From the NCBI RefSeq assembly GCF_037042905.1, contig NC_087252.1, positions 2,358,001 to 2,422,000 on the forward strand: a stretch of 64,000 bases of DNA. Reading direction: 5' to 3'. The stretch is from Lytechinus pictus. Lineage: Eukaryota. The position numbers were made by a program, and so were the translations under genes. The notes beneath the pieces are model-generated. The model made no database searches. It saw only the letters and a program-made list of their open reading frames with translations, and was not told the origin of the DNA. Shown piece by piece: positions 4,401 to 64,000 of the stretch (the first letter of the stretch is position 1; every line of letters starts with the position of its first letter).

Positions 4401-6330
4401 TAAAGCGGATAAGCCGAACAATTGTGCAAATTATGACTAAAGCATGAAACTTTCACAAGTATTAGTATATGCCGTAAGATTAATTTTAAAGATGGGAGGT
4501 AAATTAATAAATGCCATTTTCGGGCGTTGCCATGGCAACGTATTGATTACCCAAAATGACATACATTCCCATGTAAATGGTAAATAAACATGATAAAGAT
4601 GACCAAAATTATAATTTTCAGGCTCCCAATTGAATACATATAAAATTTAGAAATATTCAAGATCACCAAGATAGTTCAAATTGGTCCGTTGCCATGGCAA
4701 CGGCTTGTTTTTCCCCAGAAAAATAAAAATGTTGCCTCATTTGAACAAAAAATACAGAAAGTGTTCTGCAGGAGTTCTTTATAAAGATAAAAAAATTATG
4801 TTGCCTTGGTAATGCTTGAATTAAATCTAAAAAGAAACAATTTTGGAAAGAGCCCGTTGCCATGGCAACAGCTTATTTCCCTCAGGGTCCAAGTCAACGA
4901 ATAATCCATTGCCACCAAGCCCAATCTCTCTCTCTTAGGTGATCCCTCCACTGTTTTGGAGATTCTCAGAAACGAATATATCAATTCCAGTCCGATAAGT
5001 TAGGGATTCAACATCAGGTTGGAGCGGTGGTCATGAATTTTATGTAGAAAAAAGAGAGATTTGAGGAGCAGACTATTATTTACTTCGGAAGGGAGACCAG
5101 GTTGATGGGTTAATAGGGTAGCACTCGTAGCAATCGTAACATTAACTTCGTAAAGGAAAAGGAACGAAATTCTGCAAAAAAGGAAAACTTCTGAAGGGAT
5201 CGAGTACCACCATCGTTGAAAATCAAAACTGGTACTAAATGATCCGTTGCTATGGCAACAGGCCATTTGGAACATTGATATTTATCGAATTCAAGTATTA
5301 CCAAGGCAACATCAATGTTTATCATTCTAATTGGTTCATGCAGACCACTCACTGTAATATATTCCTCTAAATGAATTGAGTAGGTCAAACATGCATGTAC
5401 ATTAAGTTCATGTTCATTGTATTTTTCACCTGTCCGTTACCTTGTCATCCATGTTTTTTTTCAATTAGTTGTTATCTGGTTGCCATGGCAATGGCTTAAG
5501 ATGTTTTATTTTTAAATTTAGTAACAAACATATCTCGATCAGTACCTTAAAATTAGGGAAAATGGAATGATGATCATACATGTATTCTAAAGTTTTATCA
5601 GTATTTTTACCTTTCTAGAGGGAAATAAGCTGTTGCCATAGCAACGGGCCAATTGCAACATTTTTTTTTTTAATAATTTAATTCAAGCATTACCAAGGCA
5701 ACATAATTTTCTTCTTTATAAAGAACTCCTCTAGAACACCTTCTGTATTATTTGTTCAAATAAGGGGGTCAAAACTTAAGCATACAGATTAAGTCAATTC
5801 CAATCGTATTTTCCACCTGTCCATTGTCTTGTCAACCATGTTTTTTGTGTAAATTAGAAGTTATTTGGTTGCCATGGCAATAGCCTGAAATGTAATTTAT
5901 ACATTTAGCAACCAAAATATCTTTGTTTAGCACTGTAAAATTAGGGGAAATTAAAGATAAATCATATTCTACAACGATTTTTTAATCAAATTTTTTATTT
6001 TTCTGGGGAAAAACAAGCCGTTGCCATGGCAACGGATCAATTGGAACTATCTTGGTGATCTTGAATATTTCTAAATTCCATATGTATTCAATTGGGACCC
6101 TGAAAATTATAATTTTGGTCATCTATATCATGTTTATTTACCATTTACATGGGAACGTGTGTTATTTTGATAAATTAATCCGTTGCCTTGGCAACGGCCG
6201 AAAATGGCATTTATTAATTTACCTCCCATCTTTAAAATAAATCTTATGGCATATACTTATACTTTTGAACGTTTCATGCTTTAGTCAAAATTTGCACAAT
6301 TATTGTGATTTTTTGAGCTTATCCGCTCTA
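4401..6330. mobile_element. 1.9-kb DNA element with about 330-bp inverted termini and repeated GTTGCCATGGCAAC palindromes
   Basis: TAAAGCGGATAAGC ... GCTTATCCGCTCTA; 4420-4725 is the reverse complement of about 5990-6300; internal direct repeats. Confidence 0.85.
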
Positions 6331-7394: not shown

Positions 7395-7612
7395 AGGGAG
7401 GCGCGATAGCTCAGTAGGGAGGCGCGATAGCTCAGTCGGTAGAGCGGGGGTTTCGGATTCCGGTGACCCGGGTTCGATTCCCACGTGGTGCGCTAGTGCC
7501 CTTTGGTAAGGCATTTATCCTCATTACCAGGTCCCTCGGAGAGGACCTTAAGCCGTCGGTCCTCTGGTTGCTTGCTCACAGGCATTCGTGCTTTCTTAGC
7601 AGTCAGGTAAAA
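7395..7612 (+). mobile_element. tRNA-derived SINE with tandemly duplicated 21-bp 5' end
   Basis: AGGGAGGCGCGATAGCTCAGT x2, A box TAGCTCAGTCGG, B box GGTTCGATTCC, non-tRNA body. Confidence 0.8.
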
Positions 7613-8196: not shown

Positions 8197-8382
8197 ACCT
8201 TTATCATTTTTTTTCCTATTTTTCTTTGGTTGGGGCATTTTCAGGATCAAGTGTCCCCAAGACCCCGATATATCTAACCTACATCCAAAGGAGTTTACAC
8301 GCCCCAAACCTTGATTCCTACAATACAAGTATTGTTGAAGTAATCGCTACAAGAATCATACTGCATAATGCGATTACTTTAA

Positions 8383-9178
8383 AGGAAGGTCCATGCTGGA
8401 TATATTTATAACTCAATAAAGAGTAAAATTCACAAAGCAAAATGCTGAAAATTTGATCAAAATCGGATAACAAATAACGAAGTTGTTGAATTTTAAAGAT
8501 TTGCATTACTCCTGTAAAACAGTTCTAGGCATGTCTTCATTAATATTCATTAGTTGGGCTGATGATGTCATATCCCCACTTGTTCTTTTGTATTTTATCA
8601 TATGAAATTAGGTTTATTCAAAATTTGTCTACCAAGAACTAAAACAATTTGATTGACAACTGATTAAGTACATTAGTTATTTAATGCCGCAACTTATCAG
8701 GGGCCGCGGAACCGGGGGGGGGGGGGGGCTGGGGGGGCTTCAGCCCCCCCCCCCATTTTTTTTTCCAAAACCGTGTACAAAAACGTAAAATTTACCATAT
8801 GATTGTGATTTTTAGCATGGTCAGCCCCCCCCCCCCACTTTTGGCTCAGCCCCCCCCCCCACTTTGAAAACCGTTCCGCGGCCCCTGCTTATATCATCAA
8901 AATTGAGACACGTGATTTACACCTTTATGAAAAAATGAAACAATTTTGATTTCATGTAATAACATATGAAAAGGGAAAGTGGGGATGTGACATCATCAGC
9001 CCACCTAATGAATATTCATGACGATGTGTATATAACTATTTTCACAAAATATTGATAAACTTTAAAATTCAATAACTTCATTATTTGTTATCCGATTTTG
9101 ATGAAATTTTCAGCATTTTGCTCTGTGAATTTTACTCTATTTATTTAGATATAAATATGTTCAGCTCGGACCATCCCT
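8383..9178. mobile_element. TTAA-flanked long-TIR MITE (Kolobok-like), about 400 bp upstream of the TRPC ATG
   Basis: TTAA|AGGAAGGTCC ... GGACCATCCCT|TTAA; about 200-bp inverted arms. Confidence 0.8.
8698..8887. mobile_element. MITE nested in 8383-9178
   Basis: CAGGGGCCGCGGAAC ... GTTCCGCGGCCCCTG with 5-bp duplication CTTAT. Confidence 0.85.
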
Positions 9179-9582
9179 TTAAGCTTAGGTGCATACTCTA
9201 ATACCATGGATATGGTAGAACGCCATCTCTCTGCCGAACTCGATGTTCAAAGTACCGCTAGGCATTCTCTGCATCGATGAGGTTTGCTGGTTTGTTGCAG
9301 CGCTTGAGTGCATTCACCAACGAGCCCAACATGAGATCAGACCGTCCTTCCTATTCATCTCTTCGATGGATCGTCGGTGAACCTATAATAGTTGGAATGC
9401 TCCCATTGTTCCTGAAACTGGTAACATCTCTATCTGTATAATTTTCCACATTCATACTATTTTTGGTAATTCCCCATGCTAGACAGTGTGGTTTTGTAGC
9501 TTTAATTATTCGGGTGATCCTCTAATAAGCGATGATGTGTAGTTGTTGACTGGACATCTAGTCTTACGAAGGATGATAGACT

Positions 9583-9802
9583 ATGGATGACATGAAAGAA
9601 GGAACCGAACTTGTTGAACAACCGGCTGGCGGCACCGAACAACTCAGCGGTAAGGATGCGTTTTTCCAGGCAGCGGAGAACGGTGATGTGGCAACTCTGA
9701 AGGTGCTGTTGGCGAATCGTAATGAACTTGGATTTGACGTCAACGATCGGAATGAATCTGGATATACAGCAATGCAGATTGCTATCATGGAAGGTTACGT
9801 AG
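9583..9802 (+). CDS. TRPC: TRPC coding exon 1 (start, ankyrin repeat)
   Basis: MDDMKE...FFQAAENGDVATLKVLL...DVNDRNESGYTAMQIAIMEGYV; donor G|GTAAGA at 9803, phase 1. Confidence 0.9.
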
Positions 9803-9811
9803 GTAAGAATT

Positions 9812-32209: not shown

Positions 32210-32645
32210 GTAAGTTAAATCGCGTTTATTGCGTGTACCTTTACTTTTTTTACCAACACATATATCCTTTTTACTTCTTAAATAAAAACTATACATGAAC
32301 CTGTACTGTTTAAATTAGAAATTTTCTTCAGTTATTGATCGCAAATCAATGCCTCTTGAAGGCAATCCTTTTTACTCGCCTACATGATCTTGCGGCAAAC
32401 TTTATGATCATACATAAACTTTTGGCGATATAGACCAAACTAGTATTTAAGTCATTATCAAATATTATACACACGGTAAAGTTGAAGGTTAGGCTATAGC
32501 TAGGCGTAAGAGCAAGTTTCTAATCATAAATGATTTCCGAACAAATCGCCTATTGAAGCATGATGCTGGATTTTAACATTTATGTAGTCTGTAAACTAAC
32601 TAGGCTTACTGTTATTGAAATCATTATTTTTCCATGACTATACAG

Positions 32646-32861
32646 AGACTTCTCGATGTCGGTGCTCGTATCCCCGAGTCCAAGTTCGATGACGGCGGCG
32701 GTTCTGGCGCAGGGACGATCGACAGCCTTCTTCAGTCAATTGGTCTGGTTGAAAAATACAGCGCCCTTGCCACCCCTGCGTATGTGACTCAAGCCTACAG
32801 CGACCCCATCGACAAAGCTTTCCAGCTGTCGAAGACGCTCGAGAAAATCAGTTATGTCGAG
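32646..32861 (+). CDS. TRPC: TRPC coding exon 4
   Basis: RLLDVGARIPE...DSLLQS...YSALATPAYV...DPIDKAFQLSKTLEKISYVE; cag / gtgagt. Confidence 0.92.
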
Positions 32862-32994
32862 GTGAGTGTGTGCGTGCGCGCGGATGTGGGGTATGGGAGT
32901 TTGTGTTTGTGTGGTCATGGTGGTGGTGGTGGGTGGATGTGAGTGTGTGTATGAGACATGAAGTGTGCGCCAACGTAAGTTATATATCCATGAT

Positions 32995-35427: not shown

Positions 35428-35682
35428 CGCTTTAAAAGAATATTGGGTAAAATCTTACCCAGCACCAGGGTAATTATGTGTCCAACCAATTTGGGGCAGT
35501 ATTTTACCCAATGCGGGAAACATATTGTTCAGTATGGTTAAACAAATAAGCAGCAATTTCTTTAAAATGAGCAAAATATTCATCGCACTGGATAAATAAA
35601 AATGCCCAAAATAAATGCCCAATGTTGGTTGGACACATAATTACCCTCATGGAGCATTTTTACCCAATATTCTTTTGTGTGT
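35428..35682. repeat. Dispersed TIR-like repeat; homologous (inverted) to about 1235-1441
   Basis: ATGCCCAATGTTGGTTGGACACATAATTACCCTCATGG is the reverse complement of 1265-1302. Confidence 0.7.
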
Positions 35683-39436: not shown

Positions 39437-40129
39437 GTGGGTTGATGGTGGGAGCTATTATGCACCATTTTCACGATAGCTCTTTACAGTACCTTCAGGG
39501 GCGCTGCCACCAGGACCATGGGGGCATGGCGGTGTGACGATCCCACTATGATTTCTCAATAGTATATATAGAGTACACATAATGCATTTTGCAAGAGAGA
39601 CGGACTGGTACCTACATGTACTTAGTTTAAGAATTTACCTCATCAACTGCCTTATCAAAATCATTCACATCAGAAACTGAAGCATAACTGCACCGTGGTG
39701 TGTATGGTGTCTATGGGTGAGTGTATTTTTCAGGATATTTCTTGACCAATAATTAGTCGAAGGTGACATACTTTACACATGAAATTGAAAGTTTCGATTC
39801 CCGGCTTGTCAATTATGTCATTGAGTAACTAAAGCCAATTCTTTGAAATATTGAAGTTGGTCTTTTATCTTTCATCAAATGATTTTTGTTTTTACAAAAG
39901 TTTGAACGCGTTCAAGAAAATCACTAACATTTGTATGGTTCATTTCGTCAGCATTCAAGTAATTGTAATAATGATGATAATTATACAGGTGTACTACAAG
40001 TATGTGCGACATTACACCATCAAATATTCTTGTTCTCGCTTTTACACAATCCATTTAATCGAGCTATAATGTTTTCCCTTCTTTATTAATGTTCAACAAA
40101 TTCAAACGCCCCCTTTATTTTATTTACAG

Positions 40130-40325
40130 CATTGTTGATGCAACTATCACACTGTTTTGGTCATTGTTTGGTCTTATTGGCATCGATATCCTCAATCTAC
40201 CAGCCAATCAACAGGTCCAACAGATCGCTGGTGTCGTCATGTATGTTTTATTCCATCTCTTAGCCGTGCTCGTATTACTCAATGCACTGATTGCTGTAAT
40301 GAGTAACGTCTACAACGCTGTCGAG
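40130..40325 (+). CDS. TRPC: TRPC coding exon 11 (pore helix, S6)
   Basis: TLFWSLFGLI...VLVLLNALIAVMSNVYNAVE; cag / gtaagc. Confidence 0.96.
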
Positions 40326-41356
40326 GTAAGCCATGCATGTTGGAAAATAGGATGACACGACATTTGATTCAGACCTTATTTCGTCTAAGATACATGTATA
40401 GGGTTAGGGTTGCAATAGGGTTTTATGTTAGGTTTAGGATAGGGTATAGTGTTAAATCCTGGGTTGAAGTTGGTCATTCCGTTGATGTGTGGAATTTACA
40501 GCAGAGCAATTGTCGCCGGAGCAAATTTCATGGAACCGGAAATAGATTACTAACCACCCCCACAGTAGGGATATGGTATATATGTCCTAGTTGTCCATTG
40601 CCTAAAATACAAATCCCAAGTTTATCCACGATCTACTTAAGATGTGGACAGAGTCTGGTTTTGGAAGTCATCATTTGCAGAAAATGATCCGGTTTTTTTT
40701 TCATATGCCATTGTTTATGTATATTATCATCATTATATTGGATCCCATTATCCATTGTCTAAAATGCAAAGTGTTTAAAATCCACGATCTACTTCAGATG
40801 TGGACAGAGTTTGGTTCGTCAATCGTTGCATGCAGAAAAGAATAGGATTTTACTTTGTTACCAATGTTTATGTATTAATATGATTATGTTGGACCCCATG
40901 GCGGAACAGAGCTGTTAATATGCTAGAAACTCTGAAAATTTGTGTCCTACAGTGCATTGATCACTTTTATTCAAAGCTTTATGCAACGACCTGTCCTCAA
41001 GCAGACATCAAATCTAGTAGATGGTTCTGTAGGTGTAGCGTCCACATCCAAAACCACGTTTTGTATGTAGATTCTGTGTCTGCTTCGAGAAACGCATATA
41101 TCTGTATAGACAGAAGTGTTTTATTTTTCGCTTGTCATTTTTTTCCGGCAAAAAAAATCACATTAATTTTTTAGTAAAACCCCTTTCTTTTTGCTTGTCG
41201 AACGTTTTGTTAAATTTATTTTTACTTTTTCTTCCTAACAAGTAACAATCTTTATTAATCGTTCTCAGGCCTCGGGTTTTTTTTTTTTTTGTTTCAATGT
41301 GCACAACTGTGCTCACAGTTATCCATGCCAATATTCATTTTCTTTAAATTTTGCAG

Positions 41357-43982: not shown

Positions 43983-44635
43983 AAACATAAAACCCTTCTG
44001 TATTTTATTTCATGATGAACATTTTTGATAAAGTAGGGTGTAAAGTTATATGTTAACAATTACTGTTTTTTGTGAATCTATTAATTCTTTCCCTTGCTCT
44101 GAAATCTGCCATCATCAGATATAATATATACATATATATGATATCATGGTAAATAGGTCTTTGATAGATACAATAAGGTAACTATTTTTCTTTCTCCAGA
44201 TTTGATGTAACAGCCAAGCTAAACATAAAACACTTACTTCTGTATTTTATTTCATGATTAACATTTTTGATAAAGTAAGGTGTAAAGTTGTATTATAACA
44301 TTTTTTGTGTGTGAATCTATTCCTTTTTTATCTTGCTCTGAAATCTGCCATCATCAGATATAGTATACATATATATGGTAACATGGTACAAAGGCCTTTG
44401 ATAGATACAATAATACCTTGGTCACATTTGCTCTACGGCGCGCCGAGGCGGCCGTATGGCAAGTCCAAAACAGGCGTTTTATTAATTTTAATTCAAACCA
44501 CCTATATGCAGCTGGTACAAAAAATGTTAAAACGGCTGTTTTCAACTCGCCGTACGGCCGCCACCGTAGAGCAAATGTGACCAAGGTGTAAGGTCACTAT
44601 TTTTCTTTCTTCAGATTTGATGTAACAGCCAAGCT
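43983..44635 (+). repeat. Tandem duplication (43983-44220 and 44221-44635) including the exon-15 acceptor
   Basis: Both copies start AAACATAAAAC..CTTCTGTATTTTATTTCATGAT and end CAG|ATTTGATGTAACAGCCAAGCT. Confidence 0.92.
44414..44588. mobile_element. Harbinger/Tourist-like MITE with TAA TSD
   Basis: TAA|TACCTTGGTCACATTTGCTCTACGG ... CCGTAGAGCAAATGTGACCAAGGTG|TAA; the empty site is visible in the duplicate at about 44174. Confidence 0.9.
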
Positions 44636-49312: not shown

Positions 49313-51838
49313 CCTTTGAGAGTGATAACTTTTCCATCTTCGACATAGGTAATTATAATAACGGGGACATGTTGACCAACATGAAAGTGGTATTTAGATC
49401 GTTGTTTATCAAAGGTGGCATTCGAATATGGCATAGTTTCATAAAGCTGATCGAGGATGGTGCCAGCAATTTCTCTCGAGTTTACACTTGACACAGTACA
49501 CCTTCCCCTGCCTCTTAATTTTCTAGATAATAAAGTGTTTGAACTGCAAGAAAATCGATCGTTAATTCATTCTTAGGACCCCCTTTTCATAGATTAGTTT
49601 ATCAAACTGTCATGATGTTCCCGTTTCACCACGAATAAAAAGATGGTCATGCTGATTAATAACCTCTTTATTGATCGGTATAAGTGTTTTACGTTTACAC
49701 TTTAAGACAAGGACGCTGTAAATAAACTAGAGATTTGTCAGGTTATCAATATCTGTCACACAATGTTTATGATCACTCACCAGTAATCGAGTGGTTGTCT
49801 GTCATTTTATTTTCTCCTTAATTTTAATTGATTCATTAAAGTACGGTTATTACATCACGGTATTTGTTCCATAGAACATGAGCCTCCAAAAAAATCAAGT
49901 GGAAATATGGGAGGCCTACAAGAATGTGCCGATGAATAATTTATACATGTAAAATCGTAAAGCCAATACAAGGGCAACTTTTAACATCATCAGCTCTAGA
50001 TCAGCTGCTCGTAAAGGTAATTTTGAATAACATCAATATATTTTACTTTATTCTGCAGTCCCACACCGGTGTACTGGCAAGAAATATATTTTTATCAGAT
50101 TTGATTTACACATCTGACCGACTGTACAATCGATGTAAACTTCCTCGCTTCGCTTGCTCACAAATCTACACCTACCATCTGACCAAATCAATGTTCTACA
50201 ACATAAAATTAGATTCATATTTCGACCACATCATTTGCTCTATTTATGTAAATAAGTTCGATTTCTGACGAAGCTGCCCGTCTGAATATTGTCATAAAAA
50301 AATACTAATCAGATTTGTCTGTTCTTTATCGTCTTTCGAATAATATTGAATAAAAACTAATTTATCCCACGATATTATAACGAAAACTAGATAGAGTCAT
50401 CGCAAAATTACAGATTTATTAACATGTTTCATTTGATGGAGCATGCATGGGACCAACTAAAGCCAGACTCCTCTACTTTTCATCTTTTACTTTCAAACAA
50501 GGTGACGCAACTTTGCCGACCCGATGCAGAAATCCTTCTTAAGTAAGTGACTGATAACTTCAATTACGAATAGTCTACCATGATATCAATAATGCTAAAC
50601 CACTATTCTGCCATTAAACATTTGCCCTGACAATTGTTTGTTTGTTTTTATTTCCGTCATAAAAGATACATAAATATATATACATGTAAAGAGATACAAG
50701 AAGTAACATATACATACATAATGAAATAAATTTTAAACATTAAATTAAAAAGGAGAAAATTAGTGATTGAAACATGTTAAGGAAGTTAAAAGATAATACA
50801 AACAAAAGATCAAACTTAAGACAATAGACGGTTGGATAACCTATGTTCAGCTGCACCAATTATATGTGCGGCTGGTCTTCCATTGGGACCAAATAAAAGA
50901 GAGAGAGAGATAGTCATAGGGAGAGGAACATGAGGACTGAAAAGAAAAGACAAAAGAGGGAAATGAGGGAAGAGAGAAAAGAAAAGGTAGGTAAAAAAGA
51001 AAGAAGGAAAGAAGAGAAAAAAAATCACAATGCACCATGACAATTGCAGCAAGGATATTAATAGTTCAAGATTTCCTTAAAGATATTTGTTTTGATATCT
51101 GATCGATAAATCATTCATACATGCATGCTAAACCCTAGATGCTTGACAGTAAGGAAAATACATTGTTTGCCGAAATGCATGGCTAGCATTCATGACTGTT
51201 GGGAGATTGCTCGTATGCTGTATACTACTCGAAGACAAATTATATTACGGTAAGAAGAAAGATGGGAGGCACAAACGTTTGGAAATAGATTAATTTAGTC
51301 AATGCCATCAGTGTAGACATTATGATTACCTTGATCGATATAAAAGGGAATAGGGAACTCTCAGGTTATTTGCAGAAAAACCACAGTGACACCAGGGAAT
51401 GTTACCGCAACTACTTGTTTGAGCAGGGTGTACGACAGGAGTTTCTTGAACTGATAAGACATATCTTAAACATAATTATGACATATGACATCGTATTTTC
51501 GGAAGATGTTTTCCCATAATAAGAAGTTATCGATTTGGCAAAACCTATTCAACATGTCCGATTACTGACGAAATCAGTGTGATCTTTGTTTTAGAAAAAG
51601 ACATCTATTTTCCTAGATACTTAAAGTCAGTTATAACCAGAGCCGTCAACGTGTCTGCGGTAAGCCAGAGTATCTCAAGATTCTCTGGAAATGCTGTGAT
51701 GCCAACTGTAACTTTTCATAACCGAAGTACTCATATTTCCTTGAATTTGCAAAGTTAGCTCGGATGTACATCACTTGTATTCTCTTTCCTTGAACCGTGG
51801 AGGTAGAAAGCCACGCTTGAACATCAATATCTGTAGTA

Positions 51839-52882
51839 ATGCCGGGGAGTACTGTGGAAACATCTGGCAATCTATCAATCATGTCGGAGGAGTCTCTGGA
51901 ATTCTGGGAAGCCTTTTCGCATCCAGTCAGGCAGGTGACCATAGCTTTGTGCATGATCTTATTTTCAATCGTAACGGCTGTTATCACCTTCTTCATTCTC
52001 AGACGATGCAAGGAGATTTACGATGACGACCCCTCTATTCGACTCTTCCAGTTCGTTGCTTTAGCCAATATGATGACTGGATTGTTTCTCTCTATGGTGT
52101 TTTTGCTTTCCAACCCAAAGGGGAAATTCCCTTACATTGGCACTACATGTCAGATTGGTAAATCTTTTATCTACATATTCCACTTTCAATCAACCGCCTT
52201 TGTTACCGCAATAACGATCAACCGATTTCTTCTTGTGAAGTGGCCGCTGCAGTACTACAGAGTCGTCAGTTTCAAGAAGATAAACTTTATAATTTCCGTG
52301 ATTCTGATAGTCTCAACCTTGTATATTGTGTACCTACCTCTTCCTAGCTTCCCGTTTCTCGAGGGATTAGAAGCTGAATGTTTTCGTTCTTCTTACGGTA
52401 ATTCTCGCCAGCGAATCATAAGTCGTATCATGCTTCTGCTTTGGTCAATAAATCACGTGATCATCATAGGAACCAACGTCTTGCTTTTGAAAATCGCACG
52501 TGACGTCCGACGGTCCAACCGTGTCGCCGCGGTTATGGACGCGTTGCGTTTGGAGCCTACCGCGTTGGGACGCAAACGTCTTGTGGTCCGACGTGATGTT
52601 AACCGCAGCGCAACAAAACGTCAACATCGCGGCGTTATTCTCGTAATTTCAATAAGTACTGTATATTTTGTGTCGTCTTTGCCAGGCTTGGTAGTTCTTT
52701 CCATGATGTCTAAGGAATCAGCGACTTTATCTCCCTACGCATACATAGTTGTGTCTTTCCTCAGTTTAGTAAGCAGTGTATGGAACATCATTGCCTTCAT
52801 CCTGTTCGATACCAAATTTCGGCGCGTAATCTGCAACATGTTTAAAAGGACCACTCGCTCTGAACGAATAATGATACTGTAG
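51839..52882 (+). CDS. Intronless orphan rhodopsin-type (class A) GPCR, copy 1
   Basis: 347-aa ORF with seven hydrophobic segments, TM3 Cys, INRF in place of DRY followed by WPLQY, and a helix-8-like DTKFRR. Confidence 0.9.
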   Translation: MPGSTVETSGNLSIMSEESLEFWEAFSHPVRQVTIALCMILFSIVTAVITFFILRRCKEIYDDDPSIRLFQFVALANMMTGLFLSMVFLLSNPKGKFPYIGTTCQIGKSFIYIFHFQSTAFVTAITINRFLLVKWPLQYYRVVSFKKINFIISVILIVSTLYIVYLPLPSFPFLEGLEAECFRSSYGNSRQRIISRIMLLLWSINHVIIIGTNVLLLKIARDVRRSNRVAAVMDALRLEPTALGRKRLVVRRDVNRSATKRQHRGVILVISISTVYFVSSLPGLVVLSMMSKESATLSPYAYIVVSFLSLVSSVWNIIAFILFDTKFRRVICNMFKRTTRSERIMIL

Positions 52883-53365
52883 AAAATATTTAGAGAATGT
52901 TACAGAAAGTAATGGAAGTGAAAGATGACTTAATACTGCAATTCTATACATCATTACAAAATTAATTATTTCAATTTAATTCATTTAATATCTGTTTCAA
53001 TCCCAATTCAGCAAATGGATGGGATGTATATATGAGTGCTGTGTGTGGGGGTGTCAGAGTCAGTGTGTGTGTGTATATCAATATACAGTTTTACAATAGT
53101 GTGGTTATTTCAATCGGAAAGTGAGCTATTCGTTGAAAGCAAAAAAAACAAAAAAACAAAAACGTTCAAATCATCTGGGTACACACTTAAACTGTTGGCC
53201 AACATATTGTCCCCTGTGTTGGGTAATGCTTATTGGTCAAACTTATATATTTATATATATATATATTGTGAAAGAACTGGATGAAGAGAACAATGGTAGG
53301 CGTAGCTTAAATCAAGGTTCCCCAGAGCTATCTACCCTATGGAAAAATTGGTGATGCCGAAAAAA

Positions 53366-53437
53366 TGTCTCTGCCGGGAATCGAACCCGGGCCCCCAGCT
53401 TTGAACGCCGGTGCCTTAACCACAAAACCATAGAGAC
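53366..53437 (-). tRNA. tRNA-like gene, anticodon TCA, in left arm (probably repeat-borne or pseudo)
   Basis: Inverted copy of 53566-53637. D-loop GG retained, one acceptor-stem mismatch, T6 downstream on minus. Confidence 0.55.
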
Positions 53438-53565
53438 GGGTTTGTGGCTAGGGCGACCCCGATCCGATTGACCGTCAGATAGACAGATTTTCGACACTCT
53501 ACCAATTATAATTTCCTTTGTCTGGTGAAGGTGGGTTTTGAACAATGACAAGCCGCCACAAACCC

Positions 53566-53637
53566 GTCTCTGTGGTCTTGTAGTTAAGGCACCGGCGTTC
53601 AAAGCTGGGGGCCCGGGTTCGATTCCCGGCAGAGACA
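53566..53637 (+). tRNA. tRNA-like gene, anticodon TCA, in right arm (probably repeat-borne or pseudo)
   Basis: GTCTCTG/CAGAGAC acceptor; GTCT/AGGC D-stem; CCGGC-GTTCAAA-GCTGG anticodon arm; CCGGG-TTCGATT-CCCGG T arm; TTTTTT immediately downstream. Confidence 0.6.
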
Positions 53638-53784
53638 TTTTTTCGGCATCACCAATTTTTCCATAGGGTAGATAGCTCTGGGGAACCTTGATTTAAGCTA
53701 CGCCTACCATTGTTCTCTTCATCCAGTTCTTTCACAACATATTTAAATAAAGGAGTTGCCAAAGCTGTTGTACATGTATAGCTT

Positions 53785-53818
<34 letters not shown>

Positions 53819-55043
53819 ATCACAAAAGGTTTACTAAATGCCGTAGAAAAAATCGTAGATTTTAAAAGGAGCATAGCTCTCAAAAATGAAAGGTACAGTC
53901 ACACTCTTCGTCAGTGCCCATGATGTGACAAAAAAGAGAATTCAAAATCCGTTTCTGAAACAGTCGTGAAAACACGTCTCTTCATGGGCAAACGGATTGT
54001 GAAACTCCCTTTCAAAGAAATCAATACGCTGAAGATGGAGGAAGCGCACTGTAAAAGACGCATCTAAAGACGCGTAATATATATAGATATATTGTGGGTA
54101 ATTATTACCCAATTTGGACAGATTTTTACCAGTAGTTGTGTGGACAGTATGTTGCCCAGGGTTGGTTAAAAGTTTGGCATGCTTTGCCCAACTATTTTAA
54201 GAGTGCATTTTGTTTTATTTGCCTTCATTTGTTTACATTTATCTACTTGTTCATATATCATATACCATCATATATTCCTAAATTGAATGATACGAAAGAA
54301 ATTACGACAGCAGGTAAGGGGGTCGTAAAGTGGTTTATACTACAATGTTTGTGTTCCATACTTAAAAATAAGATCGGCCTCTTAAAATTAAAAAAAGTAG
54401 TTGTGTTATACGAGAACCGTCTTTAGTTTAAATCCGTTGATGAAGCTTTAAGTACTTTTGAAGGTTCTCTCTTTTTTTAAGATATTCATTGAAGTCATTT
54501 TCATTTCAAGGTAGGCTATCCATTTCAATCATGATATTGTCATATTTGTCATCATTTTTTTTTTTTCGGGAAATATTTGAATAAAAACAAGACATTTATC
54601 GAACATCATTAGACTAAAGATAAGGAAGACAGAATATATCTACTAAGATCTATGATAGTAGATATTCTCATTGTTACACAAACACACACACACACACGCA
54701 ATCTCTCTCTCTTCCTCTCTTTTTTTCCTTTTCTTTATCCCCCCCCCCCCCCCTCTTCCGTGCTAATTTCTGGTTAGTCAGAACTCATTGTTTTTATGTT
54801 ATTAGGCCGCATTTATTTTCCATTTTGGTTTATCATGATGGGAAGCATGTCATAATTTAATACATGCGTCCCTAACATGATAAACAACCTTCCGTGTTTT
54901 AATGTTTCTTATGATGTAGAATTCTTGTAACTTGAGCTTTTTTACTTCATGATGAATGTATTTTTATGTAAATGTTTGTAAAGGGTTATGCAATTCGGCT
55001 TTACAGCCTCTACAAATACCCTTGTTGTAATAAACCTTTTTAA

Positions 55044-55638: not shown

Positions 55639-57318
55639 TTAAATGAATAAAATTATTACGGCCTGTTTCATTTAACCGAGAGGGGGTACTCACGAAGCCA
55701 AGCTCCCATCTTTCATCATGTTCATTTCTTCTCACTTTCAGATCCTTGCTCCTAGGAAATTCAAAATAAATTTGCAAACGTTTTCAAAGCAAATTTGTTG
55801 GCTGGTGCCTCATATTTCCTACAATGTTTGATCACGTTTAAAAGTAAGAGGGATATCGATCATATATTTATGTTCATGTCACACCACCAAAACCGATTCC
55901 AGTCCGATTGCAGCTATTGCGTTATACTGAATGGTGCATCCAATCGGATTGGGGTCGACTTCCCAAGGGTGACTGTTTGTAATTATTGCGTTAAGAAATT
56001 TTGGAATAAAACAGAGATGAGCTTCTGCGTTGGGAAACGTGGCAGCAATGTTTGCTTACTGATTCGCTCTCAGCTAATAATGCAAGAATACATTTTGCTT
56101 ATAATAATTCTGGAGAGAGCATCTCTCTGGTAAAACGCACACCGCATGACAGCAGCATGAAGAGATCTGCTAGTGGCTGCCACTGACAGCTGTTATGAGC
56201 TATTGAAAATCCTCTGATCTGATTGGCCGAAATTAAAGAAGTCAGTAGCAATTGTTGATAGGTTTTGCTATTAAATGCTTCTCCGACATAGCAATTCTGC
56301 TTACCTATCTGATGGATAACGTTAGTTCCGGAGTGTCTGCCTTTCAATCAACATCGCATAAAAATGCCCTGGCAATAAATATTAGTTCAGACAACGTAGC
56401 ATCGCAGCATGAACATTAAATCTCCTAAGATTTTTTTTAAATAGATCTTATGGCGAGATCTCATTTCTACAGACAAGTTGATTCTTAGAGAAGTTATTTT
56501 GTTTGCAAGGTATTAAGACAAAGCAAATGGTTGTTCGAATGCGGCAGGCTATGCAATGACATTTTCAGAAATATTGACATCACGGTAGAAAGGACATTGT
56601 TTGGCGCCTTACATTTTGATAAAAGATGAAAATAATCGTCGAAGTCATCACTATAGTCATAATAATTGATTTGATCAACAGAAAGGAGAATCGAGAATTA
56701 TCTACCTATTTGCAAAACATCGACCATCTCGCCAGCTCGGGAATCTTTATTCATCTGAATTTTCGTGACATTCGACATGTTTGAGCAAGGTCTACGGCAC
56801 GAGTTTCTTGAACATGTCAACGTATATCAGGACAAACAGTTTTATTGCAGCTACCAATCTGATATCACCTCAACACGCAAGATTTCCCCATGAATCAAGA
56901 GGGTTAAAGAAAATTGCGCATCTTTAATCATTTCTGCTCGTATACTTTTTTCTGTAACAACCGAATAGTCACAGATAATGTCATTAGCAAGGAATTTCAT
57001 CTAACGAACATCGGGAATAGTCTTTGGTCATATTGATAGTTGTTATAATGTTCCATGCATGACAAAATCCTTCGTTAATCACAGCAAAAGGTAATGGTCA
57101 TGATAAATTTATCATTATGGAAACTGGAATATAAAGAAATAGCATGAGACTGAAAGGCTTGGCTGACCTCAAAATCTTGACTGAGTGATTTGTGAGCGTT
57201 GCAATCATAATCAGGAAATCTTCAAAATGTGCAATAAAACTTGATATTCCTTTAAATGTATTAAACAAGCTCGTTTGCCCATTGCTACCTTTTTGTCTTT
57301 AATAAAAGGTTGAGAGTA

Positions 57319-58350
57319 ATGTCTTGGATTGATACGGTACCAACTGACCATCTATCAACCCTGTCCATAGAGCCTTTCGAGTTCTTGAACGCGTATCCAG
57401 TCCGGCAGGTGATTATAGGTGCGTTCATGATTGTGTGCTCCGTCATTACCGCGGTTATCACCCACATCATCCTCAAACGATGCAGGGATAATGACGAGGA
57501 TGACCGCTCTATTCGGCTCTTTCAGTTCGTTGCCTTTGCTAATATGATGGCAGGATTATCTATTTCGATAGTCTTCATGCTTTCTGATCCTGGGGGAAAA
57601 TCCCCATACACCGCCGTTGTATGTCAGATCGGTAAAACATTCATCTACGTCTTCAACTTTCAAGCAACCGCGTTTGTAACCGCAATAACGGTCAACCGAT
57701 TCCTTCATGTGAAGTGGCCCCTTCAGTACTACAGAGTCGTCAGTTTGAAAAAGATAAACTTAATAATTTCGATGATTCTTCTTATTTCAACTGTATATTG
57801 TGTCTACCTCCCTCTTCCCAGCTTTCCTTTCGTCGGGGGATTACAGCCGGAGTGCTTCGGGTCCCCTTATCTTGAATCTCACCAGCAAATCATCACTCTT
57901 GTCTTGCTGCTAATGTGGTCAATAAATCATGTGATTATCTTGGGAACTAACATTCTCCTATTAAAAATCACGCATGACGTCCGCAGATCTCGACGCATCG
58001 CCGCGGTAACTGACAAATCGCAATCAACCGCAACGGGAAGCACATTCATTGAAGCATTCCGCGGTACCAACCGGAGCACAAGAAAACGTCAACATCGCGG
58101 CGTTATTCTCGTGATCTCAATAAGCGTCATATATTTTCTGTCATGTTTGCCAAGCATAGTTGTTTTATCTATGATCGCCGCTCAGACAGCGGGTTTCTCT
58201 CCTTATGTCTATCTTGGTGTGTTTTTGCTCGGTATAGTAAGCAGTGTCTGGAACATAATAGCATTTATCCTGTTCGATACCAAATTTCGACGCGTCATCT
58301 GCGGCATGTTTAAAAGAACAACTCGCTCAGAACAACTAGTAATATTCTAG
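57319..58350 (+). CDS. Intronless orphan rhodopsin-type GPCR, copy 2 (tandem paralog)
   Basis: First ATG at 57319 (the track start 57310 is TTG). Collinear with copy 1, with identical blocks such as VKWPLQYYRVVS, YLPLPSFPF, WSINHVII and SSVWNIIAFILFDTKFRRVIC. Confidence 0.9.
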   Translation: MSWIDTVPTDHLSTLSIEPFEFLNAYPVRQVIIGAFMIVCSVITAVITHIILKRCRDNDEDDRSIRLFQFVAFANMMAGLSISIVFMLSDPGGKSPYTAVVCQIGKTFIYVFNFQATAFVTAITVNRFLHVKWPLQYYRVVSLKKINLIISMILLISTVYCVYLPLPSFPFVGGLQPECFGSPYLESHQQIITLVLLLMWSINHVIILGTNILLLKITHDVRRSRRIAAVTDKSQSTATGSTFIEAFRGTNRSTRKRQHRGVILVISISVIYFLSCLPSIVVLSMIAAQTAGFSPYVYLGVFLLGIVSSVWNIIAFILFDTKFRRVICGMFKRTTRSEQLVIF

Positions 58351-61096: not shown

Positions 61097-62800
61097 TTAC
61101 TTCATATCATTGGGACTATTAATGAGCGACTTTTCAAGCTGCTTGAATCTATGATCAAGTGATGCTCTCTTTGCTGCTTCCGCTCGAGCGAGATCCTTCA
61201 TTTTTTGACGCAACAGAGCAACGTCGCCGCCAGCTTCAACTTCCCTCTTTGACGTTTTCAGCATCAGGTGCGCCGGAAGCGTCCTAACAATACGGCGAAT
61301 CACGTGATAGTTAACCTCCTCATCGTTGACGTCACAATTCTTTCGCGCATTGTCTTTGTTGTCCTTTTCCTGGGTTTCGTTTTCGCTGCTCCCACCCCAA
61401 ATGTGACTACTGTCGTGATTGTCCGTTTTCGGAAGAGAGGAAGCTGAATGGGTCTTCGCTGTATTTTCGCGCGTTTTCTTTGGCAAGGTTGAGCTGGCGG
61501 ATTTAACGGATTTAATGCCATTTTCATGTCGATGACGTTTTGAGCGTTCTTGATTAGGATTAGCGGTACTGTCGCGGCGTGAACCGCGTCTTGACCGGCT
61601 GTGACCGTTCTCGCTTGCCTTAATCGCTCTTATCAATTTATCTCGTGTAGGTGCTGACACCAGAACCGAGTGGTCACTCTGCTGCCGAATTAACTGCGGC
61701 TTTCTGTCAGTGACGGGTGAGTTTGGAAGGCTAACACTTGCTGGGCGGTGCATTTCCGAGGAAGCTGGTGGAGGCGATCTTCCTTTCACTTTCACGTTAG
61801 GTGTAGCTTGGGGCGGTAAAGAAGCGGTTAAGACTGAGGCATCTCTCTCAGGGCTAGAGATCGAAGATAGTTTCAAGTCATTTGTTGACGGAGACTCCAC
61901 TGGAAGTTGCGAAGCAAGAGATGGAACCGCGGGAGTTTTTTTGAATGACATAGCAAAAAGGCCAAGTGCTCTTACTTTTAGAACCGGAAACCTTGTTTTA
62001 GGTTTTACCGTTTCAGCAGATCCTCCGGGGTTCGGTTTCGCATTATTCAAGGGATCGGCATCTTTGACATCACTTTTCTGTACTTCCGGTTCAAGATTAC
62101 TGGTTTTCTTACACTCCTCTCCCCTGTCTTCTTCAACCACTTCTTCAACTTTCATCTCAGATTCTAGTTTCTGTTTCCAAGCACCTGACATTAATAGTGG
62201 CATCTTAATCTTTTCTCTCCTGGATCCAAAGACCCCCCTGCTTGCCAGGTCTCGCTTTTCTTCCTCCTTTCTATCACGCTCAGCTTGCTCGCTTTCTTTA
62301 GATGCTGTTATCGTTGTTTCCTGTATATCCGTTTCAGATTTGTCCCCCTGTGGAACTTGATCTGCTGATGAGGTTTCGTCTTCAAGCCCCATCGTCTTTA
62401 GCGATTCATCAAGAGACTTTTCGACAGGAGTCCCTTGTTTGAATTCCTTGCTCTCTGGGCTCGTACTCGACTTTGGTTTAAATGAAAACACGTATTCCTC
62501 TTTCAGCCAACTGTTGTCCCCGTCCTGAGGAGGAGGAGGGATGCAATTGAGATACTTAGGTCTCTGTGCAGCTTTCACAAAACGAAGATCATTGTCCTGG
62601 TCAAACACCTGCTTCATGAAGAAACTCCGCTGGTTCCACGACATCGCCGTTTCCCGTTTCCTCTTCTCCCTGTCGATCTTCCTGAGAGTAGCAGCCAACC
62701 GCCGTTCCTCACCCGGGTTTCCCAGGGAGATGCCTATCTCCCCGTTCCGTCCACCCCTCGACTCTGAGCGGTTGCTACGTCTAGCTACCTTCTGAGCCAT
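61097..62800 (-). CDS. 567-aa uncharacterised, mostly disordered protein with N- and C-terminal helical motifs (possibly CCDC190-like)
   Basis: 1.7-kb uninterrupted ORF in AT-rich DNA. N-terminal EERRLAATLRKIDREK coil and C-terminal SLDHRFKQLEKSL. A splice acceptor (ccccctgcag on minus, 62859) lies 58 nt upstream of the ATG. The family guess is from memory only. Confidence 0.85.
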   Translation of the reverse strand: MAQKVARRSNRSESRGGRNGEIGISLGNPGEERRLAATLRKIDREKRKRETAMSWNQRSFFMKQVFDQDNDLRFVKAAQRPKYLNCIPPPPQDGDNSWLKEEYVFSFKPKSSTSPESKEFKQGTPVEKSLDESLKTMGLEDETSSADQVPQGDKSETDIQETTITASKESEQAERDRKEEEKRDLASRGVFGSRREKIKMPLLMSGAWKQKLESEMKVEEVVEEDRGEECKKTSNLEPEVQKSDVKDADPLNNAKPNPGGSAETVKPKTRFPVLKVRALGLFAMSFKKTPAVPSLASQLPVESPSTNDLKLSSISSPERDASVLTASLPPQATPNVKVKGRSPPPASSEMHRPASVSLPNSPVTDRKPQLIRQQSDHSVLVSAPTRDKLIRAIKASENGHSRSRRGSRRDSTANPNQERSKRHRHENGIKSVKSASSTLPKKTRENTAKTHSASSLPKTDNHDSSHIWGGSSENETQEKDNKDNARKNCDVNDEEVNYHVIRRIVRTLPAHLMLKTSKREVEAGGDVALLRQKMKDLARAEAAKRASLDHRFKQLEKSLINSPNDMK

Positions 62801-64000
62801 AGTCCCGGCAAGATGTATCGTGCACCTCTAATTAGTTCCTCGTGATCATGATAATATTCTGCAGGGGGGGGGATATGAAAAAAATAGAAACGATAAGACC
62901 ATTACCTTCAAAATTTCCACATTACTGGCCATTAAAATTCCTTAAAAATTCAGCATTCTTAAACAAGTTTTAATATCCATTTCCGAAAAAAAATCCACAA
63001 AAAGCATACTAATTTATAATGTCATAATTACAAAAATAAGAAAAACTTCGTTCCTTACAAAAGAAATTCCATCCGACTTCAAATGATGATGACCCAAGAG
63101 CTACCCAGAAGCATCAATTCAATAAATACTTGAACGTTGGAATATAGAGTAATAAAATAACCGACCAGCTTTACAGTGTAGCCGCATCGATGTCAATTAA
63201 GTATTATAACCCCAGTGTTGTTTGACCACACCAATAATTTCCTTAATGTCTCCAATATTGAAAAAGGGAACTCTTGGCACAAATTAATCGATAAGACTCA
63301 GAAGGTAAAGGCCACAATAAAGAATAAGATCCTCCCAAAGCGACCCGCTCCTTCGATGTAATTCCACATGTTAACTCATCCCTATACCGGGGCCATTTTA
63401 TCATCTAGTTTAACCTATTGTTGTGGCGAAAGCACCCGTTATTGCGGTCACCCAAAACCTTATAGACTCCTTTGTTCGGATACATTGATCAGTTATCGAT
63501 TGGTTTTGTGTAGTAGTGAAAAGAAAGAAAGGTAGAAGTATGCAAACTAGTATTCAGTGTTGCTGGGATATTTGGGTTTTGTTTAGAGAATGGAGATCGG
63601 AGCAATAACCCAACAGAGACATGTACATGGAAGAGTCTCGAGGGGTGTGTGGGCTTTGTCGTCTGGTCGAAATCATTTAAAAAACACACACAAATTAATA
63701 TGTCAGAAAAATTAGTTGTTAAGTAATTTCAAATTTGAATACTCTAATTATATCATTTCCATGAGTGAAATTTGCCATTCACTGGTTTATTGTGATACAA
63801 ACGTTTTCAAAGAAAATGAAGTTTACAAATGAGATGACAAAAATAAATAATTTACATGTCAGCAGAAATAATACACTTATTTCAACACAGGGTTAATGCC
63901 TTTTAATAGCAAGTTGTAAGCATGAATTAAGAATCCGGGCACATTCGATGATCCATTTATATATCTTAGTTCATTGAAAAATTTAGATCCAGTACATGGC

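Follow-up and report, generated by a model that had tools for sequence, protein, structure and literature searches.

The DNA examined here is a 64,000-nucleotide stretch of the Lytechinus pictus genome (contig NC_087252.1; hereafter the window), in which a long inverted repeat bears two tRNA-like modules with the anticodon TCA. The locus consists of two copies, both 5′-truncated, of a single, very abundant repeat that carries a tRNA-like module; they meet head-to-head, and the fold-back does not represent a fixed two-armed element. We propose, with a probability of about 0.65, that a borrowed RT and endonuclease of a Penelope-like element (PLE) wrote both copies into a TA microsatellite in a single event, and that TCA is an inherited substitution in a nondecoding passenger module.

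The inverted repeat spans 53254-53448 and 53555-53749 (195 nt per arm, 97% complementary, with 106 nt between the arms). Pairwise BLAST aligns a gapless 183-nt core, 53266-53448 against 53555-53737, with three mismatches (E 1e-91), in agreement with a preliminary description of two 183-bp arms that are near-perfect reverse complements. The mismatches lie at 53421/53582, 53426/53577 and 53431/53572, all in the 5′ part of the cloverleaf, and so within the cloverleaf as had been described. The potential for a long hairpin is likewise upheld by a predicted MFE of -389.7 kcal/mol as RNA. On the left, the locus opens with a TA-rich tract (53243-53265, pure (TA)n at 53252-53265) that is the likely target site. 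Then follows the longer truncated copy (53266-53558, minus strand, 293 bp), which comprises an upstream part, a tRNA-like module (53366-53437), a T6 run resembling a Pol III terminator (53360-53365) and a 3′ body. The apparent spacer between the arms (53449-53554, minus strand) is the upstream part of this left copy, and by itself it does not fold stably (z +1.3 to +1.4). At the head-to-head junction, the tetranucleotide GCCA (53555-53558) can be assigned equally well to the left copy's end or to the right copy's start. The shorter copy (53555-53739, plus strand, 185 bp) is a 5′-truncated, inverted copy of the same unit, with its module at 53566-53637 and a similar T6 run at 53638-53643. It is followed by a one-sided tail of family sequence (53740-53786, plus strand), supported as far as 53779 (40 nt) by contig pieces and by a variant row at 53752, and probably reaching about 53786 (47 nt), and then by a (CA)n(TA)n tract (53787-53817).

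The organization of the unit emerges from public contigs. The 24 runs listed all consist of assembled contigs; those of four runs, probably from other individuals, were aligned to 52900-54100 at 80% likeness and gave 3,446, 3,436, 35 and 791 records. The 35 contigs derive from organism C (run X15), where a relative and contamination are indistinguishable. Runs with small shares (organisms B and D and the marine metatranscriptome X20) lay outside this set and carry no weight as evidence. Over 53269-53719 the summed depth is 118,000-330,000 in run X1 and 243,000-545,000 in run X7, the corresponding values for contigs of the flank (53075-53090) being 12 and 78. The resulting ratios of repeat to flank, about 18,000 (X1) and 7,000 (X7), are not copy numbers but denote a thousands-fold excess. 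The proposal of a young, mobile-type repeat is supported. Spacer and arms are covered to about the same depth. Contigs that span the left arm and spacer (for example 53300-53558 and 53360-53558) leave the window sequence at 53558, where, among the loose ends listed (24 of 924), a total of 55 contigs (23 in X1, 25 in X7 and 7 in X10) pass into one and the same other sequence. Among the 32 long pieces listed of 7,907, four end at 53556-53558, five start at 53555-53564, and none bridges the head-to-head junction. Because pieces stop at the junction and contigs continue elsewhere at 53558, the spacer is assigned to the left copy, and the locus holds less than the whole family unit. The 472-bp fold-back, which had been taken as the unit, is not supported in that role: the family unit has a single arm, and the fold-back is a junction peculiar to this locus. 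The insertion also exceeds 472 bp, since family-like sequence in the contigs extends rightward to at least 53779.

Inverted joints also occur elsewhere in the family. Among the 15 joints listed of 81, two link the left unit to the right arm, at 53358-53698 and 53506-53622, each with only 28 letters on the short side and weak when taken singly. In five others the strand inverts inside the left unit (53323/53495, 53338/53496, 53347/53519, 53422/53466 and 53514/53548). All seven joints are represented by one contig per run and have unreadable polarity. Inverted junctions whose breakpoints vary are thus a habit of the family. Within the window there are no further family copies, the sole similarity being a 16-nt B-box match to a tRNA-Arg(TCG)-like unit at 7422-7493. 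That unit is reported by ARAGORN and falls below the Rfam gathering score; the region around it (7395-7540) contains a perfect 21-bp tandem duplication of the tRNA-Arg-like 5′ end (7395-7436) and a body lacking a T run, and it looks like an ordinary SINE head. Exact family motifs had no matches in viral contigs and none in prokaryote genomes. Three metagenome-contig loci that matched family motifs over 20-27 nt, with neither a tRNA nor other similarity to the family, were set aside as chance.

Both arms carry the same non-majority base at four mirror pairs: 53339/53664, 53443/53560, 53424/53579 and 53277/53726. The non-majority share is 0.04-2% at three of these pairs and 3.6-6.3% at 53424. 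Both mirror positions of 53339/53664 and of 53443/53560 are among the variant rows listed (40 of 120), and the other two pairs are represented by one position only. These four shared rare variants show that a single template gave rise to both arms; variants so nearly private would not be shared by insertions that had occurred independently. The three changes specific to one arm (two on the left, one on the right) are departures from the family majority.

These data bear on the possibility that the locus is a non-autonomous DNA transposon (a MITE, fold-back or Ginger2-type element) in which each TIR contains a tRNA-like gene. The locus resembles Ginger2 DNA transposons and their MITEs in its long, near-perfect inverted repeats, in its AT-rich flanks and in a right end that reads TGTNR from outside (Bao et al., 2010, PMC2836005, as far as that source was available). 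The resemblance stops at the family level, where the inverted repeat is particular to this locus and there is no family-wide fixed pair of TIRs: the family passes 53558 into other sequence, the junction goes unbridged in the listed pieces, and breakpoints vary between contigs. Moreover, the left end is not TGTNR, the four flanking bases differ (TATA versus TATT), and family sequence continues beyond the right "TIR". A MITE family would also show the four variants common to both arms as common variants, unlike the rarity found. A DNA transposon is thus very unlikely and already in large part refuted, and a Ginger-type MITE is rejected by the contig alignments. The main text of PMC2836005, in which "tRNA" has no occurrence, gives no support for tRNA genes in Ginger TIRs.

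The outer ends of the two copies differ. The left copy enters (TA)n at the point where 21 contigs of X1 and 12 of X7, which run into (TA)n behind 53732, also do, and the right copy has 40-47 nt more family sequence before (CA)n(TA)n. Depth in this tail, at row 53752, is 52,000 and 114,000; two contig pieces reach 53776 and 53779, and the alignment passed over 53780-53828 as repeat. The (TA)n context described earlier is supported, but (TA)n touches the left end only, and on the right the tail and (CA)n come first. Head-to-tail partial tandems (pLTR) are absent from the locus, and neither tandem arrays, a unit of full length nor a TSD was observed in the window and contigs, which counts against a PLE origin.

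The arrangement matches insertions of PLEs as described in the available portions of a study of endonuclease-positive PLEs (Naiad, Hydra and Neptune) and Chlamys families such as MRC1 (Craig et al., 2021, PMC8557442). There, insertions show strong 5′ truncation with an inverted truncated copy beside the 5′ end, carry a tail of 30-40 bp that is often confined to one end, and, in Naiad and Hydra families, prefer (TA)n; non-autonomous families exist in Chlamys, and PMC8969392, in the portion available, gives a matching picture of PLE insertions. At the present locus a 293-bp and a 185-bp copy of one template stand head-to-head, so that an inverted 5′-truncated copy lies beside the 5′ end. A tail is found at the right end only, its 40-47 nt reaching beyond the 30-40 bp of PMC8557442, and (TA)n is the target both here and in the 21 and 12 contigs that enter it. 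From these marks together we infer mobilization in trans by a PLE. Like Naiads, the family, in the part present at the locus, has no canonical hammerhead (PMC8557442). It is unlike the PLEs of that source in that the family copy has no RT or GIY-YIG coding sequence and in its internal tRNA-like module with T6, which the available portions do not describe. RT, GIY-YIG and transposase Pfam families are absent from all 179 open frames of at least 70 aa in the 64-kb window, and three short unit motifs, used in looking for an autonomous partner, have no exact match in the supplement of PMC8557442.

A single template is also what a different history would leave. A satellite or SINE-like repeat might have spread by other means (a LINE partner, rolling circle or unequal crossing over), with the fold-back produced later by replication template switching at a 4-base microhomology. 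The microhomology at 53555-53558 and the shared rare variants fit any single-template inverted duplication, and the window yielded no PLE partner. We nevertheless consider this history unlikely, since the left copy ends where many family copies enter (TA)n and the right copy has a longer tail, whereas a later accident is not expected to respect the family 3′ end or to recur as often as the several other inversion joints imply. The module, too, departs from a SINE head. Features of tRNA-derived SINEs, namely tRNA-related A and B boxes, high copy number and a simple-repeat 3′ flank (PMC8969392, in the portion available), are shared by the family, but its module is internal, with more than 120 bp of family sequence upstream, is complete and runs directly into T6, and its truncated copies form head-to-head pairs.

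Under the PLE reading, an endonuclease would nick (TA)n and the TA-rich 3′ end of the unit's RNA would prime reverse transcription. An early stop in synthesis, followed by a template switch or fold-back at short microhomology, would then give the inverted, shorter second copy, and the three arm differences would have arisen after insertion. The module itself could be a passenger, a promoter or a processing signal. With T6 directly behind the cloverleaf, transcription by Pol III would stop at that run, and the RNA that was copied is more likely a read-through of tandem copies. A T6 in this place is difficult to reconcile with retroposition driven by Pol III and counts against the PLE reading.

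The closest described parallel is offered by the non-LTR retrozymes of animals, which are likewise short, non-coding, high-copy units of a few hundred bases and are proposed to be moved by PLE enzymes (Cervera and de la Peña, 2020, PMC7229834; Li, Clavereau and Pollet, 2026, bioRxiv 10.64898/2026.07.22.740005; both as available in part). Unlike these elements, which have a type I hammerhead, the locus has a tRNA-like module in its place. For the portion of the unit present at the locus, no hammerhead core was found at zero or one mismatch in 53240-53830, no Rfam hammerhead row appeared at E up to 10, and among structured RNAs in general, the hammerhead included, nothing besides tRNA exceeded the Rfam gathering score. 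One could tentatively picture the module as the core of a retrozyme-like PLE parasite in which a tRNA mimic replaces the hammerhead: host RNase P or RNase Z would cut tandem transcripts into monomers, tRNA ligase would circularize these, and a PLE enzyme would copy them into (TA)n. Selection at the level of the element would then keep the mimic paired, G32 and TCA would prevent charging, and the copies might in addition be a source of very abundant, uncharged RNA that pairs with UGA. We regard this extension as distinctly unlikely. A search of published papers, few subscription journals among them, yielded no description of a tRNA-bearing, PLE-type non-autonomous family, and two element-specific motifs are absent from the 25 matching papers listed of 43.

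The tRNA-like character of the modules is itself clear. Rfam tRNA (RF00005) scores 54.8 bits at 53566-53637 (plus strand) and 46.6 bits at 53366-53437 (minus strand), against a gathering score of 29, and ARAGORN calls both as tRNAs with anticodon tca. The two 72-nt TCA cloverleaves of the preliminary description are thereby confirmed, and the anticodon loop GTTCAAA, the 4-nt variable loop, the B box and T6 reported with them are present in both. The anticodon lies at 53404-53402 on the left and 53599-53601 on the right, the B boxes at 53387 (minus strand) and 53616 (plus strand), and T6 directly behind each module. In the right module, which has G32 and A73, the cloverleaf is the predicted MFE structure (z -2.6; 1 of 200 shuffles as good). 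The left module folds less convincingly (z -1.6, matched by 12 of 200 shuffles). A14 is absent from both local copies and G18 from the right copy as well; besides the lost A14, the left copy has an A·C mismatch at A7 and an internal T4 in the D arm. An A-box pattern matches neither local module, and the B box is intact in both. The damaged A boxes speak, on sequence grounds, against both local copies being strong Pol III genes.

The family majority presents a different picture, with A14 and G18 in place (contig variant rows 53424 and 53582), a near-perfect cloverleaf and an intact A box, B box and T6. This preservation of fold and promoter could reflect either youth or selection. With A14 and G18 in the majority, many copies could be Pol III templates, which tells against the whole family being dead. 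The arm-specific changes at the locus and the shared loss of A14 fall on the A-box side of the module. The chance of three such changes within 11 nt is about 0.008, and of all three falling in the module about 0.06, both figures applying to an interval chosen after the pattern had been seen. Transcription-linked mutation, mutation at the hairpin tip or selection against expression could each produce such clustering.

The ancestry of the module was approached by hand counts against human tRNAs, not the host's own (sequences from PMC4928997 and PMC12217144, as available in part). The right copy is identical to Gly-TCC-2-1 at 48 of 72 positions with no gaps, to Arg-TCT-4-1 at 49 of 72 with two 1-nt gaps (13 of 14 in the acceptor stem), and to Glu-TTC-4-1 at 42 of 72. 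The tRNA-Glu likeness seen earlier is thus not favored as a sign of ancestry: Glu-TTC-4-1 gives the lowest count, and among Gly, Arg and Glu a Glu ancestry is least favored; the T-arm motif is common to Gly, Asp and Glu tRNAs (PMC6903752 and PMC7957983, in the portions available). Gly-TCC and Arg-TCT each differ from TCA by one change, at position 36, and the ancestor was likely a class I tRNA one step away at that position, Gly-TCC or Arg-TCT. One diverged X7 contig, a single instance, has the same anticodon loop with TCC and G32. Variants of the anticodon itself (53402-53404 and 53599-53601) do not appear among the 40 variant rows listed of 120, which is not proof of constancy, as the expected mirror rows 53277 and 53579 are also unlisted.

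The UCA anticodon is the module's only likeness to tRNA-Sec. In the available portions of Santesmasses et al. (2017, PMC5330540), tRNA-Sec has 90-101 nt, a 9/4 fold, a 6-bp D stem, a long variable arm and G73, whereas the module has 72 nt, a 7/5 fold, a 4-bp D stem, a 4-nt variable loop and A73. The module departs from tRNA-Sec in all five respects, and no Rfam tRNA-Sec row was returned, so that the exclusion of tRNA-Sec made earlier is sound. A suppressor-type prediction from a repeat has a precedent in Helenus (TRIMp3), a non-autonomous retroelement whose tRNA-like Pol III promoter inflates tRNA predictions and from which all predicted tRNA-Sup-CTA genes of two rust genera derive (Kojima, 2024, PMC10886601, as available in part). 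The family is like Helenus in drawing suppressor-type tRNA predictions from a retroelement-type, tRNA-like promoter. Their structures differ: Helenus is built of two direct LTRs with a PBS and a PPT and is flanked by TSDs of 4-5 bp, whereas the locus has inverted, unequal repeats, with no direct repeat of the unit and no purine run of at least 11 at the locus. The portion of that source available lists Helenus in six animal phyla, with echinoderms not among them.

The Helenus predictions were judged unlikely to work (PMC10886601), and this precedent weighs against the idea that the present family makes a functional UGA-reading tRNA, charged for example by tryptophanyl-tRNA synthetase and causing read-through. 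The intact A box, B box and T6 of the family majority, and the right copy's MFE cloverleaf, would be in keeping with a working gene. The module's G1-C72, C35, A36 and A73 also overlap what we take to be the identity elements of eukaryotic tRNA-Trp. G32, however, is very unusual in working tRNAs, and its presence in the local modules agrees with the poor decoding loop described earlier. The module has lost the base at position 36 by which glycyl- and arginyl-tRNA synthetases recognize their tRNAs, and it has neither the long arm nor the G73 for seryl-tRNA synthetase. Beyond the damaged A boxes of both local copies, there is the cost that opal suppressors, active in their thousands, would impose. 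Coverage of the tRNA part in the RNA-type run X10 (depth 46,000-51,000) does not exceed that of the body (84,000-137,000), although contigs cannot measure expression; the unique left flank is uncovered in that run, which says nothing on transcription. Read-through by the family is therefore highly improbable, and, judged from their sequences, the local modules are unlikely to be charged and to decode; the pair is likely not one of working suppressor tRNAs.

The surroundings of the insertion contain further repeats and genes. A degenerate inverted pair with CAC..TTAAA-type ends (53181-53205 and 54179-54205) encloses it, scored as well by 7 of 2,000 shuffles, which suggests that the insertion lies within an older, roughly 1-kb MITE-like element. 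Directly to the right of the (TA)n tract is a second, unrelated repeat (53829-54075; summed depth 1,000-54,000 in X1 and X7). Other inverted or palindromic repeats of the window lie at 4417-6304, 8377-9183, 35434-35676 and 44415-44587, the first with 313-bp inverted arms (4417-4729 and 5992-6304) of 93% identity. Ankyrin, TRP_2 and ion-transport matches on the plus strand (9580-9810, 32619-32939 and 40059-40352) are likely exons of one TRPC-like channel gene, and a 576-aa open frame (61097-62827, minus strand) has no Pfam match. Two rhodopsin-type GPCR (7tm_1) frames, at 51821-52882 and 57265-58350, are uninterrupted and 73% identical in DNA. The second has one database relative only at E up to 0.001, with 69% identity, and we read the pair as fast-evolving, lineage-specific receptors.

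The insertion lies 384 bp behind the stop of the first of these frames and upstream of its paralog, a position that invites the thought that the locus was co-opted, either to form a TFIIIC boundary separating the GPCR paralogs or to serve the upstream paralog as a 3′-UTR hairpin. Intact B boxes in both modules and the high stability of the hairpin speak for such a role. The present analysis, however, gave no support for suppressor activity, dsRNA production or a TFIIIC boundary as proposed earlier. Set against co-option, the insertion is young and one of thousands, and it may be polymorphic, as the junction is absent from the listed pieces of three runs with the same organism label. Co-option is accordingly a very remote prospect.

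For the genome of L. pictus, the family carries a warning for annotation: thousands of "SeC/suppressor TCA" calls are repeat copies. For PLEs, the locus is a direct sign of the inverted-pair step, in the near-private variants common to both arms. If the PLE reading is true, the capture of small-RNA genes, as by SINEs with LINE partners and by Helenus and Cassandra with LTR partners, would extend to parasites of PLEs, and a short, young and abundant family would be available for studying how inverted truncated PLE pairs originate. The family would gain much in importance if the module turned out to signal processing or to yield a charged RNA.
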